Positions 11,329 to 42,104 of a stretch of DNA of 64,000 nt are shown here, piece after piece. This DNA is from an uncultured Planctomycetia bacterium (GTDB taxonomy: Bacteria > Planctomycetota > MHYJ01 > WSZJ01 > CAZWCX01). Each line of letters begins with the position of its first letter. Position 1 is the first letter of the stretch. Location: contig CAZWCX010000007.1 of NCBI GenBank assembly GCA_964632945.1, positions 30,088 to 94,087 on the forward strand, read 5' to 3'. The translations under genes were made by a program, and so were the position numbers. The notes beneath the pieces are model-generated. The model was not told the origin of the DNA, did not search any database, and worked only from the letters and a program-made list of their open reading frames with translations.

Positions 11329-14300
11329 TCATTTCCCCCGCTTCAGGACCTCCTGCACCTCCCCCGATGATCTTACCTTATCAAAGTCCGGATCTTCCTG
11401 CACGAAATGAAGGTTCGCCCAGCCGTACTGCTGGGCGCGACGAAGGGAATCCGCGCACTCGCGCGCATTCCCCTCCAGGGCGAACACGGTCGCGAGGGCG
11501 TAGTGCGCCTTGGCATGGGCGGCATCCAACCGCAGCGCCTCGAGCAGATCCCGGCGCGCCGCCGGAAACTTCCCCATGCGATAGCGCGCCCCTGCCCGCC
11601 AGACGTAGTCTTCGACCGAATGCAGACGCGTCCGTTCACGCAACTCGGCGTCGCGAGTGAGCTTCATCCCGAAGGCCATGGTCGAGATCAGGATCTTCGG
11701 GTCCGCCTTCACCCCCATGGCGGCCACCGCCTTGGCCCACGCCCCTCCCAATTCCGGAAGTTCCCGTTCGGCTTCCGAGAACCGCAGGACGAACTCCTCC
11801 ACCTCGTACCGCATCGCGGTGCCTTCGCGATACAGGTCCATCCACTGACCCACCGCGGGCATTCCGAGGATGGTCCGGAAGACGGAACGAACGCTGGCCT
11901 TCTCCTTGGGGGTGTGGAACATGAGGTCGGGAAAGTGGAAGAGGGTGTCGCGGATCGCCTGGGTGAGCATGATTCCGAACGGCTTCTGCATCTCGAGGGC
12001 GACCCGGCGGAATTGGTCCACGCTGTCGGGGCGGAGCTCCACGAACCGGTCGAGGTCGGCCTTGGCCTCCGCGTCGAGATTGCAGGTCAGGCGAACGATG
12101 GCGCGCAGGATGAGGTGGTCGGCCGGCTCCATCCCCCGGGGGTGGACGTTTTGCAGCAGGGACTCGGCCTCGCGGAAGCGGCGCTGAAAGCAGAGCACGA
12201 TGGCCAGAAAGTCGACCCACTCCGAGCGTCGTTCTCGCTCGACCGCCTGTTCGAGATGGAGCCTGGCCTGGTCGTAGTCCCGGCGGAGGTAGTGGATCCG
12301 TCCGAGGAAGTGGAGCGGTTCCCCCCACCCGGGGGCGTTGCGGGCGACGAAGGAGAAGTTGCGCTGCGCGCCGGCGATGTCCCCGAGTTCGAGTTGGACG
12401 TTGGCCAGGGCCATGCGGGCCAGGTAATTCAAGGGATCGCGGCCGAGAATGTCCTGGAGCTCGTCCCAGGCGCGTTCCAGATTGCGGGCATGGCGACCGA
12501 ACACCGCGCCGCGCGCCGGATGCCGGTAGAAGCCGAGCATGCCGGCGTGGAGGAGGCGACTCTCCGGCGCGGAGTCCGCCAGCGCCTCGAGGTCGCGCAG
12601 GATGCGCAGGGCGGTCGGGCGGTCGGCGAACAGCGAATCGCGGAAGAGACGGACCACCCGGGTGTAGGGATCCTGGGGCGCGTCGCGCTCGAGTTCGAGC
12701 AGCATGCGTTCGCCGAGGACGAACTTGCGCGACTCGCTGAGGGACAGGGGGTCGTGGTGGAGGAGGAACAAGGCGCACAGGGCACGCGGACGCGGGGCCG
12801 CAGGGTCGAGGCGGATCGCTTCCTGGTAATGCCGGGCGGCATCGGCGAACTCCCCGATCTGTTCGTGGACTCCCGCGAGGCGAAGGTGGGCCTCCTTGAG
12901 GTTCGGGTCGAGGCGCAGCGCCTCCCGGAGCAACCGCACCTGCTCGACCGACCCGCCGGCGGCGAGGACGATGTCGGGGTTCTTGGCCTGCAGGAGGAGT
13001 TCCTGGGTCTTTCTCGCGGATTCCGCGCGTTCCCGTTCCAGGCGGGCACCCTCTTGTTCGCGCCGTTTGGCATCTTCGATCTCCCGGAGCCGGCCCCATC
13101 CCCAGCCGAGCCCGATCAGGGCGACGACCAGGACGGCCGCGGCGACCGCGATCGCGCGCCCGTGCCGGCGTGCGTCGCGCAGACGGCGTTCCCAGAAGGT
13201 CACCGGGCGGGCCCGGATCGCCTCGAACCGGAGAAAGCGGTCCAGGTCTTCCGCAAACTCCAGCATGCTCGGGTAGCGCTTGGCCGGCTCCAGTTCGAGG
13301 GCCCGCATGACGATGGTCTCGAGATCGCGGGGGACGTGCGGGGCGGCCTTGCGCAGCGGCACCTGGCGGCCGTCGACCACCCCCTGCATGATCTCGTAGA
13401 CTTCCTTGCCCGGGACGGGCGGAACGCCCGCGAGGACCTCGTAGAGGGTGGCGCCGAGCGAATAGAGGTCCGATGCGGGACCCACCCGGTCCCATTCGCC
13501 CGCGGCCTGCTCGGGCGACATGTAGTGCGGAGTGCCGATCGCCTGGCCCGAGAGGGTGAGTCCCTTCCCCGCCGAGATCTCGCGCGCGAGCCCGAAGTCG
13601 GCGACCTTGACCTGCCCCCACGAATTCAGGAGGAGATTCTGCGGTTTCAGGTCGCGGTGGATCAGTCCGCGCTCATGCGCGTGCTGGAGCGCGGAGGCCG
13701 CGTCCCGGAGCCAGCGGACGCGCTCCTGGATCGGCGGTTGGGAGGCGGCGATGGCCTCGGCGAGGTTGCGTCCGGCGACGAACTCCATCGTGAAGTAGTC
13801 CACCTCGTCCTCGCGGCCGACCTCGTACACCCGGACGATGCCGGGATGCTCGAGCCGGGCGGCGGCCCGCGCCTCGCGGCGGAATCGCTCCACCAGGGTG
13901 GCACCCGCGGCGGCGGCGCCGTGCAGCACCTTGAGGGCCACCTCCCGTTCGAGGTCGGTTTGAAAGGCGCGATAGACCGTGCCCATTCCCCCCGACCCGA
14001 GTTCCTCAAGGAGCAGGAACTTGCCGAACTTCCGGGGGCCGCGCGCGGGGCTCACCCCGGGCAGTCCGGGAGCCGCGCTGGTCGGTTCGTGGCCGGCCTG
14101 GGTGTCCCGGGCCGCACCGGTCAAGGGGGCGCCCGGGAGGGAAGGGAGCCGGTCCAGGATCGCGGTGCCGCGGGGGCCGATTTCGCCGGGCCGATCCGAG
14201 GCGGCCATGTGCTGCGTGTCGGCGATCACGGTGTCGCCGCGGCGCTCCCCCGGGGCCGCGGCGGGCGCGTCCACCGTGGGAACGCCCCCGCGGGCCACGA

Positions 14301-14505
14301 GCACCGTGACGCGCGTCGGTGGCTTGCCCGATTCGGCGGTGAATTCGTCGGGGATCTGTTCGAACGACAGCAGGCCGTTCGCCACGAGCACGTCGGCGAG
14401 CGGGCGACCCTTGGCCTGCGACAGTAGATGCGCTGCCTGGACCAGGTCCGGAGGCAACCCGGCCCGTTCGACGGCCCACTGGGCCAGGGAAGTGTCCGTG
14501 CCCAT
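11329..14505 (-). CDS. Ser/Thr protein kinase with a GspE-N-like (T2SE_Nter) N-terminal domain and C-terminal TPR repeats.
   Basis: Kinase motifs GSGGMGTVY, VALKVL, HRDLKPQNLLL, DFGLAR and SPEQ. The N-terminus (LAQWAVERAGLPPDLVQAAHLL...VLVANGLLSFEQI) is T2SE_Nter-like. The C-terminal ~500 aa are TPR-like. Confidence 0.9.
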   Translation of the reverse strand: MGTDTSLAQWAVERAGLPPDLVQAAHLLSQAKGRPLADVLVANGLLSFEQIPDEFTAESGKPPTRVTVLVARGGVPTVDAPAAAPGERRGDTVIADTQHMAASDRPGEIGPRGTAILDRLPSLPGAPLTGAARDTQAGHEPTSAAPGLPGVSPARGPRKFGKFLLLEELGSGGMGTVYRAFQTDLEREVALKVLHGAAAAGATLVERFRREARAAARLEHPGIVRVYEVGREDEVDYFTMEFVAGRNLAEAIAASQPPIQERVRWLRDAASALQHAHERGLIHRDLKPQNLLLNSWGQVKVADFGLAREISAGKGLTLSGQAIGTPHYMSPEQAAGEWDRVGPASDLYSLGATLYEVLAGVPPVPGKEVYEIMQGVVDGRQVPLRKAAPHVPRDLETIVMRALELEPAKRYPSMLEFAEDLDRFLRFEAIRARPVTFWERRLRDARRHGRAIAVAAAVLVVALIGLGWGWGRLREIEDAKRREQEGARLERERAESARKTQELLLQAKNPDIVLAAGGSVEQVRLLREALRLDPNLKEAHLRLAGVHEQIGEFADAARHYQEAIRLDPAAPRPRALCALFLLHHDPLSLSESRKFVLGERMLLELERDAPQDPYTRVVRLFRDSLFADRPTALRILRDLEALADSAPESRLLHAGMLGFYRHPARGAVFGRHARNLERAWDELQDILGRDPLNYLARMALANVQLELGDIAGAQRNFSFVARNAPGWGEPLHFLGRIHYLRRDYDQARLHLEQAVERERRSEWVDFLAIVLCFQRRFREAESLLQNVHPRGMEPADHLILRAIVRLTCNLDAEAKADLDRFVELRPDSVDQFRRVALEMQKPFGIMLTQAIRDTLFHFPDLMFHTPKEKASVRSVFRTILGMPAVGQWMDLYREGTAMRYEVEEFVLRFSEAERELPELGGAWAKAVAAMGVKADPKILISTMAFGMKLTRDAELRERTRLHSVEDYVWRAGARYRMGKFPAARRDLLEALRLDAAHAKAHYALATVFALEGNARECADSLRRAQQYGWANLHFVQEDPDFDKVRSSGEVQEVLKRGK

Positions 14506-29099: not shown

Positions 29100-29543
29100 A
29101 TGCACACCAAGACTTCCATGCTGCGCAAGGAATTCGCCCTCCTGCGCGAGGCCCTGCCGGTCCGCTACAAGTTTCTGAGCAAGAAGCTGGGCGGCCCCTT
29201 GGTCCCCGAGATCTTCGAGGGGATCACCGATGACATCAACAGCGTCGGCATGCGCCTCGAAGGCGGCATTCCCGATCCGACTTGGACGATCGAAATGCTG
29301 ACGCGCGGGATCTACCTCGGCCTCAACATCCTGCTTCCCGCGAGCGAGGAGCCCATCAAGGCGCTTGGGCGCGTGATCTGGATCGAGGCCTGGGAGGAGG
29401 GGGAAGGCAAGCCGGTGGGGATGGGAGTCAAGTTCCGCGAGGTCAGCGCCGGCGACCGCCTCCGGCTCTCCACGACCATCGGCCAGATCCGCAAGGCGGC
29501 CGCCAGCACGCGCATCAACCCGTTCGACTTGAAGAACGCGTAG
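29100..29543 (+). CDS. PilZ-domain protein, a predicted c-di-GMP receptor.
   Basis: RKEFALLREALPVRYKF (the RxxxR motif) and GITDDINSVGMRL (the DxSxxG motif). Confidence 0.8.
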   Translation: MHTKTSMLRKEFALLREALPVRYKFLSKKLGGPLVPEIFEGITDDINSVGMRLEGGIPDPTWTIEMLTRGIYLGLNILLPASEEPIKALGRVIWIEAWEEGEGKPVGMGVKFREVSAGDRLRLSTTIGQIRKAAASTRINPFDLKNA

Positions 29544-29804: not shown

Positions 29805-30782
29805 TCAGCGGGACGCGTCGACCGCCGCGCCCTCGCGCTCCGCCCGGGCGAGATCCCGGAGCAGCATGCGCGCCTCTTCCGCGGCCGGCAGCCCCGCGAA
29901 GTTTCGCGCCACTTCCTGGGCGCGCGCCTTGGCTTCCTTGCGGCTCTCCGTCCCGGCCAGCGCGCGCGCCGCGGCCAGCGCGATCATGCTCTCCTCGCCG
30001 AGTTCCGCGAGATGTCGTCGGGCCTTTTCCCGGTCGTTCCCCGCGATCAGGTCGGACTCCGCCAGTTTCTGGAAGCCCGCGATCGCCGCCGCCGTCTTGT
30101 TCTGCACCCGCAGCGCCTCCGCGTTCAGCAGCCGCTTCATTCCGTCGGCCACGGTCTTGGGCGTGATCCGGGGCGCCTGCGACGTGTAGGAGCGCCCGTC
30201 CAAGGGCACACCGGCCTTCTCTTTGACTTCGAAGAACCCGGCCGGGATCGATGTCATGTGGCTCTTGTCCCACACCACGAAGTGGAGATGTTTGAGGTCT
30301 CCCACCTTCGCGATCGTCTGACCCGCCTGGACGTGGTCCCCCCGCTTCACCAAGGCCGAGCCCGTCTGGATGTGGGAGTAGACGCTGAATTCGCCGTCCT
30401 CGTGCTGGACTTCGATGATGTTCTCCTTGTCCCCCACCGCGGTTCCGGAGTCGAACACGCGGTAGACCACCCCGTTGCGGCCGGCGCACACGAGATCTCC
30501 GGGATTCATGCCGAAGTCCCAGGCGTAGTAGTTGTGGGCGCTGATCAGATGGGTCTGCGCGCCGAAGTTCCCCTGGAAAACCGGAACGCTGACCCGGCCC
30601 GGCCAGGGGAGATGGTACTTGGCCGCTTCCGGCCACGCCCGATTGGACGCCAGATCGGCGCCCGCGCCGACAACCGGGGGAGCGGTCTTCCGACTGGTGT
30701 CCGCGTCTGCGCACGCGAGGACCATTCCTCCGGCGAAGAATGCCACCCCGACGCTGCGGAGATAGGGGTGAAACGAAAACAT
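29805..30782 (-). CDS. M23 (LytM-type) peptidase-domain lipoprotein.
   Basis: Lipobox-like signal (MVLAC). M23 motifs HNYYAWDF, VCAGRNGVV, EVQHEDGEFSVYSHI and GDLKHLHFVV. The ATG was verified at 30782. Confidence 0.8.
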   Translation of the reverse strand: MFSFHPYLRSVGVAFFAGGMVLACADADTSRKTAPPVVGAGADLASNRAWPEAAKYHLPWPGRVSVPVFQGNFGAQTHLISAHNYYAWDFGMNPGDLVCAGRNGVVYRVFDSGTAVGDKENIIEVQHEDGEFSVYSHIQTGSALVKRGDHVQAGQTIAKVGDLKHLHFVVWDKSHMTSIPAGFFEVKEKAGVPLDGRSYTSQAPRITPKTVADGMKRLLNAEALRVQNKTAAAIAGFQKLAESDLIAGNDREKARRHLAELGEESMIALAAARALAGTESRKEAKARAQEVARNFAGLPAAEEARMLLRDLARAEREGAAVDASR

Positions 30783-31056
30783 CCGGCACTCCTCCGCTCC
30801 GTGTTTCGACCCCGCGGGATTTCGCAGGGGGTTGCGAGAGGGACCATAGGCAATCCTTGTGCCTTCGCCGGTCGGGGACCGAGGAAGCGCCTCCAAAACG
30901 ATGTAACTTCTTTCCCTGAAGAGTCTTTCTCTTTCGAGGGGAAATGGCTGTGTTACGAAGGGTGACACTCCTCGGGGGGAATCCGGGCGGTCGAGTAAGA
31001 TCTCGTTTACGCCGAGCCGGAGCCTGTAAGTCGACCCTTACAGAAAAGGCAGGTCC

Positions 31057-31094
31057 GAAAACACCCGCCCCCCATTCGCGGGAATGGGGGGCGG
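31057..31094 (-). terminator. Rho-independent terminator for the minus-strand zinc-ribbon gene.
   Basis: A perfect 13-bp stem (ccgccccccattc / gaatggggggcgg), followed on the minus strand by GTGTTTTC. It lies about 25 nt downstream of the stop at 31118. Confidence 0.55.
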
Positions 31095-31117
31095 TCGGCG
31101 ACGGATGGGTGCCGCAG

Positions 31118-31885
31118 CTATTTCTTTTTAAACTTGTCGATCCGGCTGGAGCCGCGCGGCGGCTCCGGCTTCTTGGGGGCGGGGGCGGGCTTTTTTCCCG
31201 GGCCGGTCTTGGGCCGTTCCTGCAGATCTTCGAGAATCTCGAGGTCATCATCATCGCCGCCCGACTTCTTCTTCGGCTTGTCGTCGTCGAGATCGAAGTC
31301 GTCGTCGTCGCCGCCCTCGTCGAGGACCTCCACGTCATCCGCGAGGTCGTCCCCGAGATCGTCATCGCCTTCTCCGTCCTCGTCGAGCAGGTCGATGGCG
31401 TCATCGAGGTCCTTCGGCTCGTCATCGAGGACTTCCACGTCGTCTTCCTCGGCCGGCTTCTTCTTGGCCGGCGCCGCAGTCTTCTTGACCTTGATGGTGT
31501 CCTGGCCCGCGCGCTCGGCCTTCGCGGGCTTCTTCGCCGGGGGTTCCTTCCGATCCACGACCTCGTATTTGACGCCGGAGGGGACAGTCAGGCTGGTGTC
31601 GCACTTCGGGCAGCGGATGCGCGTGCCGGGGCCGAAGATCGCCACATTCAGCTTGTTCGAGCACTCGGGGCAGAAGACGATCCGACGGCCCTGCTTCTTC
31701 TCGATCTCCTGGATCTGTTCCGCGTCCAGGATGCCTTTCTTCAGCATGATGCGGTCGAGCGAGGTCACTTTCCCTTGCTTCTCGAGCTGGGCCTGCAGGC
31801 GCAGGGCCTCCTCGATTTTGTCCTTGGACGTGAAGTCCAATTCAACGGCCAGTTGGCCGAACTTGATGTCCCCCTTGCTCGGCAT
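31118..31885 (-). CDS. Protein with a GspE-N-like (T2SE_Nter) domain, a C4 zinc ribbon, and a ~140-aa poly-acidic/poly-basic disordered tail.
   Basis: N-terminus GQLAVELDFTSKDKIEEALRLQAQ...GILDAEQIQEI. Zinc ribbon CPECSNK...CPKCD. The tail is made of Asp/Glu runs such as DDVEVLDDEPKDLDD and EGDDDLGDDLADD. The gene is locally lower in GC. Confidence 0.7.
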   Translation of the reverse strand: MPSKGDIKFGQLAVELDFTSKDKIEEALRLQAQLEKQGKVTSLDRIMLKKGILDAEQIQEIEKKQGRRIVFCPECSNKLNVAIFGPGTRIRCPKCDTSLTVPSGVKYEVVDRKEPPAKKPAKAERAGQDTIKVKKTAAPAKKKPAEEDDVEVLDDEPKDLDDAIDLLDEDGEGDDDLGDDLADDVEVLDEGGDDDDFDLDDDKPKKKSGGDDDDLEILEDLQERPKTGPGKKPAPAPKKPEPPRGSSRIDKFKKK

Positions 31886-31908
31886 CGATCCTTACCTCCA
31901 CACTTCCC

Positions 31909-32337
31909 CTAGCGGTCGTGGTACTGCAATAAGTCGACGAACCCAGGCCGTGGCGGCGCAGGCTTCGGTGCGCGCGACTCCTCGGTCACAAAGTAGAACC
32001 CGCACGGGTGATCCGGCATGACCAAGTCCCGGTCGCGCAGGTCGCGCTCATCGATCGGAAACAGGCTGCAGACTTCGGGGCGGACGGGATACACGCCGCA
32101 CGCGCCGACGAATCCGTCCTTCTTGAGGAAGGCGCAATGATACATCAGGCGGCAGCAGGCCCCGGAACGGTTGCAATGGCCGCGACGCCGCGCCAGACTT
32201 CTTCGGACGTAGCCGGGTCGGAACAGGATGAGGTACTGCCGGCGCAGTTTTCCCCAGCCAAGTTGTATCCGGGCCCGGATTTTACGCGCGAGGCTCGGTT
32301 TCCCGAACCGCGGCGATGTGGCGTCCAAGGAGGGCAC
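31909..32337 (-). CDS. YkgJ-family Fe-S/zinc-chelating protein (the CxxCxxCC domain).
   Basis: CNRSGACCRL, plus the downstream cysteines of the YkgJ/UPF0153 pattern. Confidence 0.75.
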   Translation of the reverse strand: MPSLDATSPRFGKPSLARKIRARIQLGWGKLRRQYLILFRPGYVRRSLARRRGHCNRSGACCRLMYHCAFLKKDGFVGACGVYPVRPEVCSLFPIDERDLRDRDLVMPDHPCGFYFVTEESRAPKPAPPRPGFVDLLQYHDR

Positions 32338-32647
32338 CTTCCTATGACCCGATACCGATCGGATGGGCCGGAACCGCTGTCGAATCCTACTGTCGGTTCC
32401 GAAGGAGTGTCAAGAGGAAATGTGGCTTCAAACTTTGCCGCCGGGCATTGAAGGATTTGTTCAATCCGGCCTGTAAGCCGGTTGCGAGCGAATCCTGAAA
32501 TGATTGCTACATATAGTGTTACGTCATTGCTGGGAATTCCGTGGGCACGGAATGGCGCTTGCTTATCCCCCTCTTCGGTGCGGCCAACCCCGGCTCGCAG
32601 GGGGTGCACCGGAGGCCCGCACGAAAGGCATCGGGAGGCACGCAACC

Positions 32648-34168
32648 ATGAGTCATCTGCACGGCAAGCCTGGGGATCGAATCGCGGAGTACGTTCTGCT
32701 CGACAAGATCGGCGTCGGTCCGATGGGTGAGGTGTGGAAGGCCCGGTTGGCGGAGAAGCCGTTCACGGTGGTGGCGCTGAAAATTGCCGCGGACCCTGAG
32801 CGCTTCCGCGACGCGCGGTCGATGGGGACCCAGCCGTTGGGGTTGGACCATCCCGCGGTCGTGCGGACGCTGGGATTGAACATCGCGCATGACCCGCCCT
32901 ACGTGGTCATGGAGTACGTCGAAGGCCGGAGCCTGCGTCAGGTGCTGGAGAAAGGCCGGCGACTGACCCCCGGGGATGCGCTCGAAACGGCGATCCAGGT
33001 TCTCGAGGTTCTCGGCTGCGCGCACGAGCAGGGAGTGATCCACGGCAACCTCAAGCCGGAGAATCTGCTCATCGAGACGCCGCCCGGGGCGGCGGCCGGG
33101 TCGTTCCGGGTACGCGTGACCGACTTCGGACCTGGCATGGTGGCGCGAACGGGGGCGCTCCCCGCGACCGGGGACCTTTCGTACCTCTCGCCCGAGAACC
33201 GCCAGGGCGAGATGTTCGGCGTGCGATCCGACCTCTACGCGGTCGGCGCGATGCTGTTTGAGATGCTGACGGGACGGACGCCGGCGGGGGAGGAATCCCC
33301 GAGCGAGGCCGCGGAAGGCGTACCGGCGCTGCTGGATGGCGTCGTGCGCAAGGCTCTGCATGCCCGCCCCGAGGGGCGTTATGCGACCGCCCGGCAGATG
33401 CGGGAGGACGTGCTGGCGTGTCTCCGGGCGGTGCGCTCGGAGGAAGCCCGAGCGGACAAGCACGCGGCGGGAGCCTCCGGCTCCGGCAAGGCCGAAGACT
33501 CCGGTCCCCGGTTCCGCGAGCAGGTCCGTCGGGTCGTCGACGACGTCAAGGGCCGTCAGTCGGTGGACGTGGGACGCGCGTTCAATGACGCGATCGCGAT
33601 GTTGTCGCGCAGCGCCGGGACACTCCTGCTGGCGGGATTGATCTCCGGGTTGCTGTCGTTGGCTACCGCCTTCATCCTGGCGGGTCCGCTCACCGCAGGT
33701 CTCTACGCCATGGTCCTTCGCGTGCTGCGCGGCGGGACCGTCGAGGTCGGCGATGTGTTCGGCTCGTTCGACCGGTTCTGGAGCAAGATGTTCGCGTTCT
33801 ACGTGATCCTGTTCGGCATCCTTGTCGGCTTCGTGCACCTCGTCCTGCCCGGCATCGTGATTGCCGGTCTGACCATGTATGTGTTCCCGATCCTGGCCGA
33901 GCGGAAGGTCGGCTTCGGCCAGGCGTTTTCCGAGAGTGCCGGCCTGGTGTGGAAGCACGGTTTGCTGGTGCACTCGGCGCTCGTCCTCGTGGTCATCCTG
34001 ATGGACGTCTCGGCCGGGTGGGTCTTTCCGGGCGGGTTGCTGGCGAGTTGGTTGCTGAGCCCCTTCCTGTACGGGCTGATCGGGTCGGCCTACCTGCAGG
34101 TGCAGGAGCGGGAGAGCGCGGCGCCGGAGCCGAACGTTCCGGTTGCGGCCGTGCCCGCGACCGCGTAG
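32648..34168 (+). CDS. Predicted pseudokinase (Hanks-type kinase fold with a degenerate catalytic loop) fused to a C-terminal polytopic membrane domain.
   Basis: GVGPMGEVWKA, VVALKIA and DFG are present. The catalytic loop reads HGNLKPENLL instead of HRDLKPEN. The C-terminal ~200 aa form five to six hydrophobic helices. The ATG was verified at 32648. Confidence 0.75.
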   Translation: MSHLHGKPGDRIAEYVLLDKIGVGPMGEVWKARLAEKPFTVVALKIAADPERFRDARSMGTQPLGLDHPAVVRTLGLNIAHDPPYVVMEYVEGRSLRQVLEKGRRLTPGDALETAIQVLEVLGCAHEQGVIHGNLKPENLLIETPPGAAAGSFRVRVTDFGPGMVARTGALPATGDLSYLSPENRQGEMFGVRSDLYAVGAMLFEMLTGRTPAGEESPSEAAEGVPALLDGVVRKALHARPEGRYATARQMREDVLACLRAVRSEEARADKHAAGASGSGKAEDSGPRFREQVRRVVDDVKGRQSVDVGRAFNDAIAMLSRSAGTLLLAGLISGLLSLATAFILAGPLTAGLYAMVLRVLRGGTVEVGDVFGSFDRFWSKMFAFYVILFGILVGFVHLVLPGIVIAGLTMYVFPILAERKVGFGQAFSESAGLVWKHGLLVHSALVLVVILMDVSAGWVFPGGLLASWLLSPFLYGLIGSAYLQVQERESAAPEPNVPVAAVPATA

Positions 34169-40913: not shown

Positions 40914-42104
40914 ATGCCCTCGGAATCCGAAATCGCCTTCTGCCGCCGCCTGGTCGAGATTTGCTCGTCCTCGGGCATCTCGTTCACCCCGGCGGATGCC
41001 GACCGGATCCTCGCGCGCGTCGACGAGATCGAAAAAACGACCGGTCGACCGGTGTGCGTGGCTGAGATGCTGTTCAAGGACGAGGCCACGGATGTGCCCC
41101 CCTCGGCCATCGCCCGGGTACAGAACGAGCACAAACGCAAGATCGTCCTTTGCCCCACGTGCGGCGCGAAGAACAACGTCTTCGACCGGTCCCGCGAGAA
41201 GGCGGTGAAGTGCCCGGCGTGCCGCGAGATGTTCTATTTCTCGGACGGGCTCTTCCCGGTTGCCGATACCGTCGGCCTGCCCCGGATCGAGGGGTTTGCG
41301 ATCGGTGACCTGATCATGGAAGGCGGGCAGGGGGCCGTCTACCGCGGTACGCGAGCGGCCGATGGCGCGCCCGTGGCCATCAAGATCGTGCAGTGGGGGA
41401 CGATGCACGATCCCTCGGATCGCGACCGGTTCAAACGCGAGGCGGAACTGGCCGCGAGTCTCGATCATCCTGCCATTGTCCGAGTGCTCCACTTCCAGGC
41501 CGCACCGATGCGCGGTATCCTGGTCATGGAGTGGGCCGGGACAAGCGTACAGGATCGGGTCGAAACGGATGGGCCCGATCCGCCGCCGCGCGCGCTGGCC
41601 CTCGGGCGGGCGCTGTTCTCCGGCTTGGCCTACGCGCACGCCCGGGAGATCGTCCACCGCGACATCAAGCCCGCCAACATCATGGTGCGCGAGGACGGTG
41701 CGGTGAAAATCGTCGACCTCGGACTGGCCAAGACCATGGCGTGCACGGGCGTCAGCGGCATTACGCTTTCCGGGGTCGGAATGGGCACACCCGCGTACAT
41801 GCCTCCCGAGCAACTCACGCGCTTTCGCATTCTGGATGCGCGAGCGGATCTGTACGGAGCGGGGGCCACGCTCTACTTCCTGCTCACGGGTCATGCGCCG
41901 TACGAGGGCAAGGGCCCCGCAGAGGTGCAGCGCCGGCTCGCAGAGGGACCGCCGAAGTCGATTCGGTCGTGGCAACCCGCGTTGCCTCCGGCCATCGTTG
42001 CGCTGATCGAGCGCCTGATGGCCCGCGAGCCGGAGCGCCGTCCGGCCGACGCGGGTTCGGTCATCGTCGAAATCGACCGTATCCTGGCGGATTCGGCGCG
42101 CTGA
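40914..42104 (+). CDS. Ser/Thr protein kinase with an N-terminal zinc-ribbon domain. It is divergent from the FHA-protease gene.
   Basis: CPTCGAK...CPACREMF, then GGQGAVYRG, VAIKIV, HRDIKPANIMV, DLGLAK and PPEQ. The ATG is in-frame inside the long track ORF 39333..42104 and was verified at 40914-40916. Confidence 0.85.
   Translation: MPSESEIAFCRRLVEICSSSGISFTPADADRILARVDEIEKTTGRPVCVAEMLFKDEATDVPPSAIARVQNEHKRKIVLCPTCGAKNNVFDRSREKAVKCPACREMFYFSDGLFPVADTVGLPRIEGFAIGDLIMEGGQGAVYRGTRAADGAPVAIKIVQWGTMHDPSDRDRFKREAELAASLDHPAIVRVLHFQAAPMRGILVMEWAGTSVQDRVETDGPDPPPRALALGRALFSGLAYAHAREIVHRDIKPANIMVREDGAVKIVDLGLAKTMACTGVSGITLSGVGMGTPAYMPPEQLTRFRILDARADLYGAGATLYFLLTGHAPYEGKGPAEVQRRLAEGPPKSIRSWQPALPPAIVALIERLMAREPERRPADAGSVIVEIDRILADSAR

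Follow-up and report, generated by a model that had tools for sequence, protein, structure and literature searches.

What might a small planctomycetal protein do that joins a helical bundle and a zinc ribbon to a long charged tail, when the same bundle and ribbon stand in front of Ser/Thr kinase domains and the protein itself has none? This question arises from a gene (the target in what follows) in a 64,000-nt stretch of DNA from an uncultured Planctomycetia bacterium (assembly GCA_964632945.1, contig CAZWCX010000007.1, positions 30,088 to 94,087 of the forward strand), which at its full length we call the window and to which all coordinates refer unless another contig is named. Following up an earlier note on this DNA, we find that the target is best explained as a cytoplasmic copy, without a kinase domain, of the N-terminal module that commonly precedes the Ser/Thr kinase domains of Planctomycetota. 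In Ser/Thr-kinase signalling it may serve as adaptor, competitor or substrate, a reading that we favour but hold tentatively.

The target and its module family

The target is a real and conserved gene that encodes an uncharacterised Planctomycetota protein. The interval 30783..31885 to which the earlier note had drawn attention consists of one coding sequence (CDS; 31118..31885, minus strand) and 335 nt of intergenic DNA (30783..31117), and position 30783 is no CDS boundary but the base preceding the ATG (30782) of the next gene, which encodes an M23 lipoprotein. The start codon of the target is secure, because a GGAGG Shine-Dalgarno sequence lies 9 nt 5′ of the ATG and every homologue starts with the invariant N-terminus MPSK(G/N)D. 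Two long open reading frames (ORFs) on the opposite strand, 30944..31912 and 31134..32021, were discarded as high-GC artefacts, since it is the minus-strand frame that has the genomic signature in GC content at third codon positions (GC3) as well as conserved homologues. Two AlphaFold (AF2) runs on the target, made with 10 and 27 aligned sequences, gave results that agree: residues 1-104 are folded, with predicted local distance difference test (pLDDT) values of 82-91 in the first run and 89-96 in the second, and are followed by a disordered tail. The parts of the target are as follows.

31118..31885, minus strand: target CDS, 255 aa and stop codon, delimited by ORF, GC3 and full-length homologue alignment
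31691..31876, minus strand: GSPII / MshEN_N (ND0)-type bundle of four helices, in which the cyclic di-GMP (c-di-GMP) motif is degenerate, residues 4-65
31580..31681, minus strand: C4 zinc ribbon (CPEC...CPKC), like MJ0042, ZitP and GltJ-ZnR, residues 69-102
31121..31573, minus strand: intrinsically disordered tail of 151 aa, residues 105-255, pLDDT at most about 50 in either AF2 run
31481..31498, minus strand: TIKVKK motif in a basic block of the tail, residues 130-135
31229..31444, minus strand: four acidic-hydrophobic repeats D-[DA]-[VIL]-[DE]-[VIL]-L-[DE], residues 148-154, 162-168, 183-189 and 213-219
31121..31144, minus strand: C-terminal basic-aromatic motif RIDKFKKK; the close clade ends in RLDRFKKK/R

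The N-terminal bundle consists of helices 4-15, 21-36, 43-49 and 55-65 and has the four-helix fold of MshEN_N. The earlier note had assigned a T2SE_Nter-type helical domain, which is right at the level of the fold, as seen in the AF2 models and in Foldseek, where PilF GSPII-A is the best match, but not at the level of Pfam, as PF05157 (T2SSE_N) gave no match to the target at E <= 1. The family profile weakly matches PilF as well (E = 0.007). Where the N-subdomain of the MshEN/GSPII systems (V. cholerae MshE, T. thermophilus PilF GSPII-A/B/C, X. citri PilB and XpsE) comes with an ND1 subdomain, the target has a zinc ribbon: the AF2 models contain no second alpha/beta subdomain (MshEN_C / T2SSE_N1 / ND1), residues 69-102 forming the ribbon and the remainder being disordered. 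The cysteines of this ribbon (C72-x2-C75...C92-x2-C95) are, together with N80, invariant in 44/44 cluster representatives, and its strands (69-71, 78-80, 89-91 and 98-100; pLDDT 82-96) place the two CxxC pairs on two beta hairpins, ~16-20 residues apart, as expected for a ribbon of the MJ0042/ZitP/GltJ kind. A C4 ribbon behind the helical domain, as the note had described it, is thus borne out by the invariant cysteines and the modelled strands, and zinc binding is predicted.

Among known ribbons, the family profile matches AgmX/GltJ ZnR (7zok) with E = 0.019 and ribosomal protein S27e with E = 0.03, and Foldseek returned the ZitP finger (2nb9) and LysW. The scores of the target with the family models stayed below their cut-offs (TIGR02098, 12.3 bits against 20.9; Zn_ribbon_4 and Zn_ribbon_5, 11.4 and 10.6 bits against ~30). 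Like the C. crescentus ZitP finger and the M. xanthus GltJ/AgmX ZnR, the target has a C4 ribbon of ~35 residues with two beta hairpins that precedes a long flexible linker with short conserved motifs. The target ribbon differs from both in standing C-terminal to a helical bundle, whereas theirs is N-terminal, in lacking a GYF or transmembrane part, in a similarity that lies under the family cut-offs, and in having no MglA/MglB or PopZ context.

Homology searches by family scans, word index and profile found no characterised protein, and the target retains the lack of a known identity with which it was first described. With Pfam, NCBIfam and PADLOC, neither the target nor its upstream partner exceeded any cut-off, and Rfam yielded no credible RNA family, either in the whole window at the gathering score or in 30600-32600 at E <= 1, where a plant-virus pseudoknot (E = 0.48) was the sole match. 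A word-index search recovered only ten full-length homologues, all unnamed or 'hypothetical', with the named ones coming from groundwater Planctomycetes metagenome-assembled genomes; a second word-index profile search returned two proteins only, and a peptide-pattern scan of genome contigs two loci only, its patterns being too specific. When the protein of the window was looked up by exact identity, no contig came up. An exhaustive profile search with residues 1-116 brought up 2,546 cluster representatives at E <= 1e-3, 606 of them at E <= 1e-10, within a family that is delimited by a profile seeded on the target (A2) and is thus defined here alone and not by an independent standard. All relatives that carry a taxon name are Planctomycetota. 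These matches place the target in a sizeable and unnamed family of planctomycetal modules, whose signature M-P-S-x-x-D..F-G..A...L..Q...E..G...[DE]R...Q...RR..FCxxCxxKxNV...G...CxKC....VP extends over a module of ~100 residues and is matched contiguously by the target. In many relatives the helical unit is doubled before the ribbon.

The module is shared with kinases. Pkinase was found in 35/68 module-bearing relatives of 331-1250 aa, and the single-module kinases P0031 and P0042 open with the same MPS..D..FG signature. Within the window, the kinase 40914..42101 (plus strand, 395 aa) starts with MPSESEIAF, scores 141 bits with Pkinase and has the same bundle and CxxC...CxxC module (profile E = 6e-9); it is the clear in-window paralogue of the target module. 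The N-terminal regions of these Planctomycetota Ser/Thr kinases, unnamed in Pfam, thus carry the module of the target including its MPS..D signature, and the target differs from them in having a disordered charged tail instead of a kinase domain. A Pfam-based survey of planctomycetal kinase architectures did not report the module (PMC11032199). The earlier note had placed the shared domain at the start of another kinase, 11329..14505, for which we obtained weak support: no match to the family profile, a probability of 27% in hhalign over 49 columns, and 12.3 bits with the NCBIfam model NF053729 (cut-off 38). At least three Ser/Thr kinases lie in the window: 11329..14505, 32504..34168 and 40914..42101.

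The other long relatives, about half, have TPR, FGE-sulfatase, HisKA/HATPase or amidase domains. FumaraseC_C and DUF4388 (Pfam) gave repeated partial matches on the helical repeats, in 15/68 and 14/68 long relatives, respectively, which seems to reflect cross-matching to the helix-turn-helix half-motif rather than true membership.

The tail, described in the earlier note as ~140 aa of alternating acidic and Lys/Pro-rich basic runs, is disordered over its 151 residues and arranged as basic, acidic and basic blocks: residues 105-145 have a net charge of +8 and are of the PAKKPAKA type, residues 146-224 contain 42 D/E, and residues 225-255 are rich in Lys/Pro with a net charge of +9. Its length and sequence vary among homologues, whereas the block layout is kept; between clades the tails are largely unalignable, but short motifs recur. 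Within TIKVKK, T130 is kept in 9/10 of the closest homologues and K134 in 10/10, and a T-[IVL]-[KRM]-[IVM] motif recurs in the tails of distant stand-alone relatives. The close clade retains the last acidic-hydrophobic repeat (DDD[IL]E[IL]LD; D214 in 9/10, E216 in 9/10), and the repeats are absent from the tails of distant relatives. Distant stand-alone relatives end in a manner similar to the target, for example with RFSRFGKYRK, KFAMRRYGKR or KFAIRHYGRK. From their pattern of conservation, the recurring tail motifs seem to behave like short linear motifs, and TIKVKK may be a phospho-acceptor or strand-docking motif.

Possible roles of the module and its tail

Every step of binding, partner choice and signalling in the following is what we infer from these features. 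Whether it serves Ser/Thr-kinase signalling as adaptor, competitor or substrate, the target would use its folded module (residues 1-104) to recognise the same partner or small ligand as the modules of the kinases. The 150-residue tail would then be the output, in which TIKVKK, the four D-V-E-V-L-D repeats and the basic-aromatic C-terminus could recruit or sequester proteins or become phosphorylated. GSPII N-domains and ZitP/GltJ-type ribbons have been documented as protein-interaction or switch modules (PMC8389850; PMC11135422), and in GltJ the ZitP-like ribbon holds a linker motif until MglA-GTP displaces it (PMC11135422). By analogy, the ribbon and a basic surface of the target might bind a motif of its own tail, to be displaced by a partner, and such a GltJ-like switch is plausible. 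The role in kinase signalling is supported by the invariance of the cysteines, the presence of the module in kinases, the divergently adjacent kinase found here and likewise in the related contig L001, and the conserved motifs within otherwise unalignable tails.

Several observations weigh against it. AF2 docked none of the tail segments on the folded module, even with the deeper alignment of 27 sequences that raised the confidence in the module. The adjacency to a kinase was seen in two closely related genomes only, where synteny is uninformative, and the neighbourhoods of distant stand-alone relatives differ: in two contigs, P0033 begins 3 nt behind recA, P0010 lies just 5′ of trmD-rplS, and the others stand alone. 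Moreover, with about half of the long module-bearing proteins being non-kinases, the module is not kinase-specific, and phosphorylation of T130 is pure conjecture.

The fold of the bundle raises the alternative that the target is a c-di-GMP receptor of the MshEN type, in which the bundle would bind one c-di-GMP and thereby alter binding by the ribbon or tail. MshEN binding depends on two 24-residue motifs joined by five non-conserved residues, for which a relaxed pattern has been given too (Wang et al., PMC5013675). None of the 158 relatives matches the strict motif, and the relaxed motif matches neither the target nor its stand-alone MPS-type relatives; about half of the 158 hold at least one relaxed half-motif, the stand-alone MPS-type proteins none. 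In the target, motif I retains K-F-G...A-V...I...L..Q and fails at D17 (the turn Gly position) and T19 (a hydrophobic position), and motif II departs from the pattern by having S42 in place of Arg, D44 in place of Gly and E62 in place of Leu. The 44 single-module cluster representatives have E, K or Q where motif I calls for Arg, mostly S or T (35/44) where motif II does, and D or E instead of the motif-II Gly in 42/44. The spacer between the motifs has 10 residues (A32-T41) instead of 5 and belongs to the better conserved stretches (E35 in 39/44, G38 in 36/44 and T41 in 27/44 representatives), so that, compared with the MshEN/GSPII systems, the target combines a motif degenerate at Arg and Gly with a conserved inter-motif loop (EK.G..T[ST].DR).

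Some evidence does speak for a receptor of this type: the c-di-GMP motif model NF053729 aligns end to end (target residues 9-65 to model positions 2-53), a known binder, PilF GSPII-B, likewise has Lys for Arg in motif I, a PilZ protein is a conserved neighbour, and MshEN_N-only proteins, including fusions to kinases and M23 peptidases, were recognised by Wang et al., whose table of MshEN_N architectures contains no zinc-ribbon fusion (PMC5013675). The NF053729 scores are, however, all below the curated cut-off of 38 bits, with 12.4 for the target and 21.4 and 26.4 for its relatives P0033 and P0031. In addition, the substituted Arg and Gly positions and a spacer that is the most conserved loop liken the target to two domains of the same fold that do not bind, the N-terminal domain ND0 of X. 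citri PilB (PMC8389850) and PilF GSPII-A, its best structural match, in which small deviations from the motif abolish binding (Neissner et al., PMC12002112). In view of the failure of both the strict and the relaxed motif and of these non-binders, and with no Pfam or NCBIfam model at threshold, we did not class the target as an MshEN receptor; canonical c-di-GMP binding appears unlikely, and so does the receptor reading as a whole.

The ribbon and the basic blocks of the tail could instead point to a protein associated with nucleic acids (nucleoid, ribosome or RNA), in which the ribbon and the Lys/Ala/Pro-rich basic blocks would bind and the acidic block would auto-inhibit or act as a mimic. 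The blocks PAKKPAKA, AAPAKKKPA and KKPAPAPKKPEPP, which we take to resemble histone-H1-like tails, count in its favour, as do the weak match of the ribbon to S27e (E = 0.0095-0.03), the positions of single relatives behind recA and in front of trmD-rplS, and the Joint Genome Institute (JGI) label 'predicted RNA-binding Zn-ribbon protein' on one module-bearing protein. But the likeness to S27e is generic for four-Cys ribbons and lies under every cut-off, the searches detected no family that binds DNA or RNA, the tail has an acidic net charge of -19 over its full length, and the neighbourhoods are inconsistent across lineages. With the same module fused to kinases, which argues for a signalling role, we regard a nucleic-acid-associated function as improbable. 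Still less probable is a membrane- or pole-tethered scaffold, with RIDKFKKK anchoring on an anionic membrane or polar matrix, the ZitP-like ribbon binding a polar organiser and the charged tail driving clustering or condensates. For such a scaffold speak the [KR]-F-x-[KR]-rich C-terminal ends kept across distant relatives, the strong segregation of charge into blocks and the Foldseek match to the ZitP finger, which binds PopZ (PMC11135422). This match is weak, however (E = 0.33), no PopZ-like partner was identified, and eight residues do not suffice to form a canonical amphipathic membrane-targeting helix.

A bolder version of the kinase connection would make bundle and ribbon a so far unnamed intracellular sensor module of Planctomycetota that gates hundreds of Ser/Thr kinases, with the EK.G..T[ST].DR loop and the acidic Gly replacement retuning it away from canonically bound c-di-GMP to, for example, another nucleotide messenger or a protein, and with the target as a diffusible effector whose tail forms regulated assemblies or sequesters partners; we consider this version quite improbable. 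The kinase-less adaptor, competitor or substrate that we tentatively prefer combines known kinds of domains, namely a bundle similar to MshEN_N that lacks the c-di-GMP signature, a ribbon similar to those of ZitP and GltJ, and a disordered tail, and represents a well-delimited uncharacterised family, not a new mechanism.

Transcription unit, neighbouring genes and base composition

The target is the second gene of a probable bicistronic unit, with these features.

32384..32413, minus strand: sigma70-like promoter candidate TTGACA-18-TAGGAT, a consensus match only, 5′ of the bicistronic unit
31909..32337, minus strand: upstream partner, a cysteine-cluster (CxxCxxCC / YkgJ-like) protein of 142 aa, start codon uncertain
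31055..31094, minus strand: intrinsic terminator with a 13-bp perfect stem, CCGC loop and GTGTTTTCGG tail, recognised by its fold and in a relative

The candidate promoter is the only promoter-like site in 30500..32600 (0.2 expected), and an equivalent TTGACA-16/18 site lies 5′ of the orthologous gene pair in L001. The upstream partner, which reaches 18.6 bits with Pfam PF03692, where the cut-off is 23, ends 23 nt before the target and is probably co-transcribed with it. Its orthologues, 50-63% identical and with every Cys kept, are located directly 5′ of the target orthologues in the Planctomycetota contigs L001 (9550..10011) and L003 (9634..10011), where the overlap of 11 nt suggests translational coupling of the two genes. 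A conserved neighbourhood was also considered as a clue to function and set aside, since only the YkgJ-like partner recurs, and this in the closest clades only, while the contexts of distant relatives are unrelated (the loci of distant stand-alone relatives are L012 3927..5552, L013 610..2235 and L005 3677..5871).

At the other boundary of the operon, a hairpin at 31065..31094 (minus strand) begins 24 nt past the stop codon of the target and is followed by GTGTTTTCGG. The strong terminator reported earlier, with a GC stem and a T-run, is there as the target's own and with a perfect 13-bp hairpin, but the stem comprises 10 G-C and 3 A-T pairs, and the T-run consists of four consecutive T only. 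The local fold has -40.6 kcal/mol (z = -3.0). In L001, a 12-bp hairpin of different sequence with a T-rich tail lies 22 nt past the stop codon of the orthologue, and this positional equivalent provides the best support available, by comparison, for a functional terminator.

The 335-nt flank beyond the stop codon, which had been counted with the target, belongs functionally to the M23 gene, as indicated by its promoter element and an upstream palindrome.

30850..30863, minus strand: sigma54-type element GGCAC-N5-TTGC, 68 nt 5′ of the M23 ATG
31024..31043: inverted repeat CTGTAAG-N6-CTTACAG, perfect over 7 nt, ~165 nt 5′ of the sigma54-like element

GGCAC-N5-TTGC occurs nowhere else in the 64-kb window, for which chance would give 0.41 matches, and is kept in the alignment with L001 as GGCACGAGGATTGCCTAT. 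The palindrome is largely conserved in L001 too and is placed as one would expect of an enhancer-binding-protein site serving the M23 gene. CGTAAAC (31005..31011), CTTACTCG (30992..30999) and GGATTCC (30978..30984) are also conserved blocks within the intergenic DNA. The M23 peptidase itself (Pfam PF01551, 52 bits) has a lipoprotein-like signal peptide. MshEN_N-Peptidase_M23 fusions have been recorded in Acaryochloris (PMC5013675); a Rosetta-stone link between the target and the M23 protein was nevertheless set aside, given the terminator and the separate sigma54-type promoter between the two genes and the lipoprotein signal peptide of the peptidase.

Convergent to the M23 gene, a small PilZ-domain protein is encoded at 29100..29543 (plus strand; 22.2 bits against a cut-off of 22.5), with an orthologue in L001 at 12211..12651 (minus strand; 27.9 bits). 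Because a PilZ-domain protein is present near the locus and in L001, the organism probably uses c-di-GMP signalling. On the other side, the Ser/Thr kinase 32504..34168 (plus strand) is divergent from the target operon, and its hydrophobic C-terminal half resembles a membrane region.

The locus had also attracted attention by its low GC content. The 1-kb bin 31001-32000 indeed has the lowest GC of the window (0.626 versus 0.698 overall), which agrees with the description of the CDS and its flanks as the most AT-rich part, but the deepest trough at a resolution of 300 nt lies at 32221-32540 (GC 0.557), comprising the 5′ end of the upstream gene and the divergent promoter region. The GC3 of the target is 0.855, within the range of eight other genes of the window (0.79-0.91), and only its GC content at second codon positions (GC2) is low (0.344 versus 0.43-0.50 in these genes); horizontal transfer is therefore not indicated, and a horizontally acquired island was ruled out as the cause of the dip by this typical GC3, with synteny being kept in a related genome. 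In this respect the earlier explanation was right, but the Lys/Asp-rich tail to which it attributed the dip is not its specific cause, because the N-terminal part is equally low in GC2 (0.355) and the deepest trough is intergenic and upstream; in overall GC, the tail has 0.639 and the folded N-terminal part 0.606, and the folded part contributes to the dip no less than the tail. The dip stems from amino-acid usage and intergenic DNA.

Significance for planctomycetal kinases

Hardly anything is known of the inputs to the very large sets of Ser/Thr kinases that Planctomycetota possess, and Pfam-based surveys miss the N-terminal module described here. As a clean natural MshEN_N fold without the c-di-GMP signature, the target helps to decide which residues predict binding. 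Should the module serve as a sensor or for docking, it would offer a handle on the control of a sizeable share of these kinases, and its importance would rise if it proved to be a sensor gating many of them. In that case, the small stand-alone protein would be the easiest member of the family to express and test.

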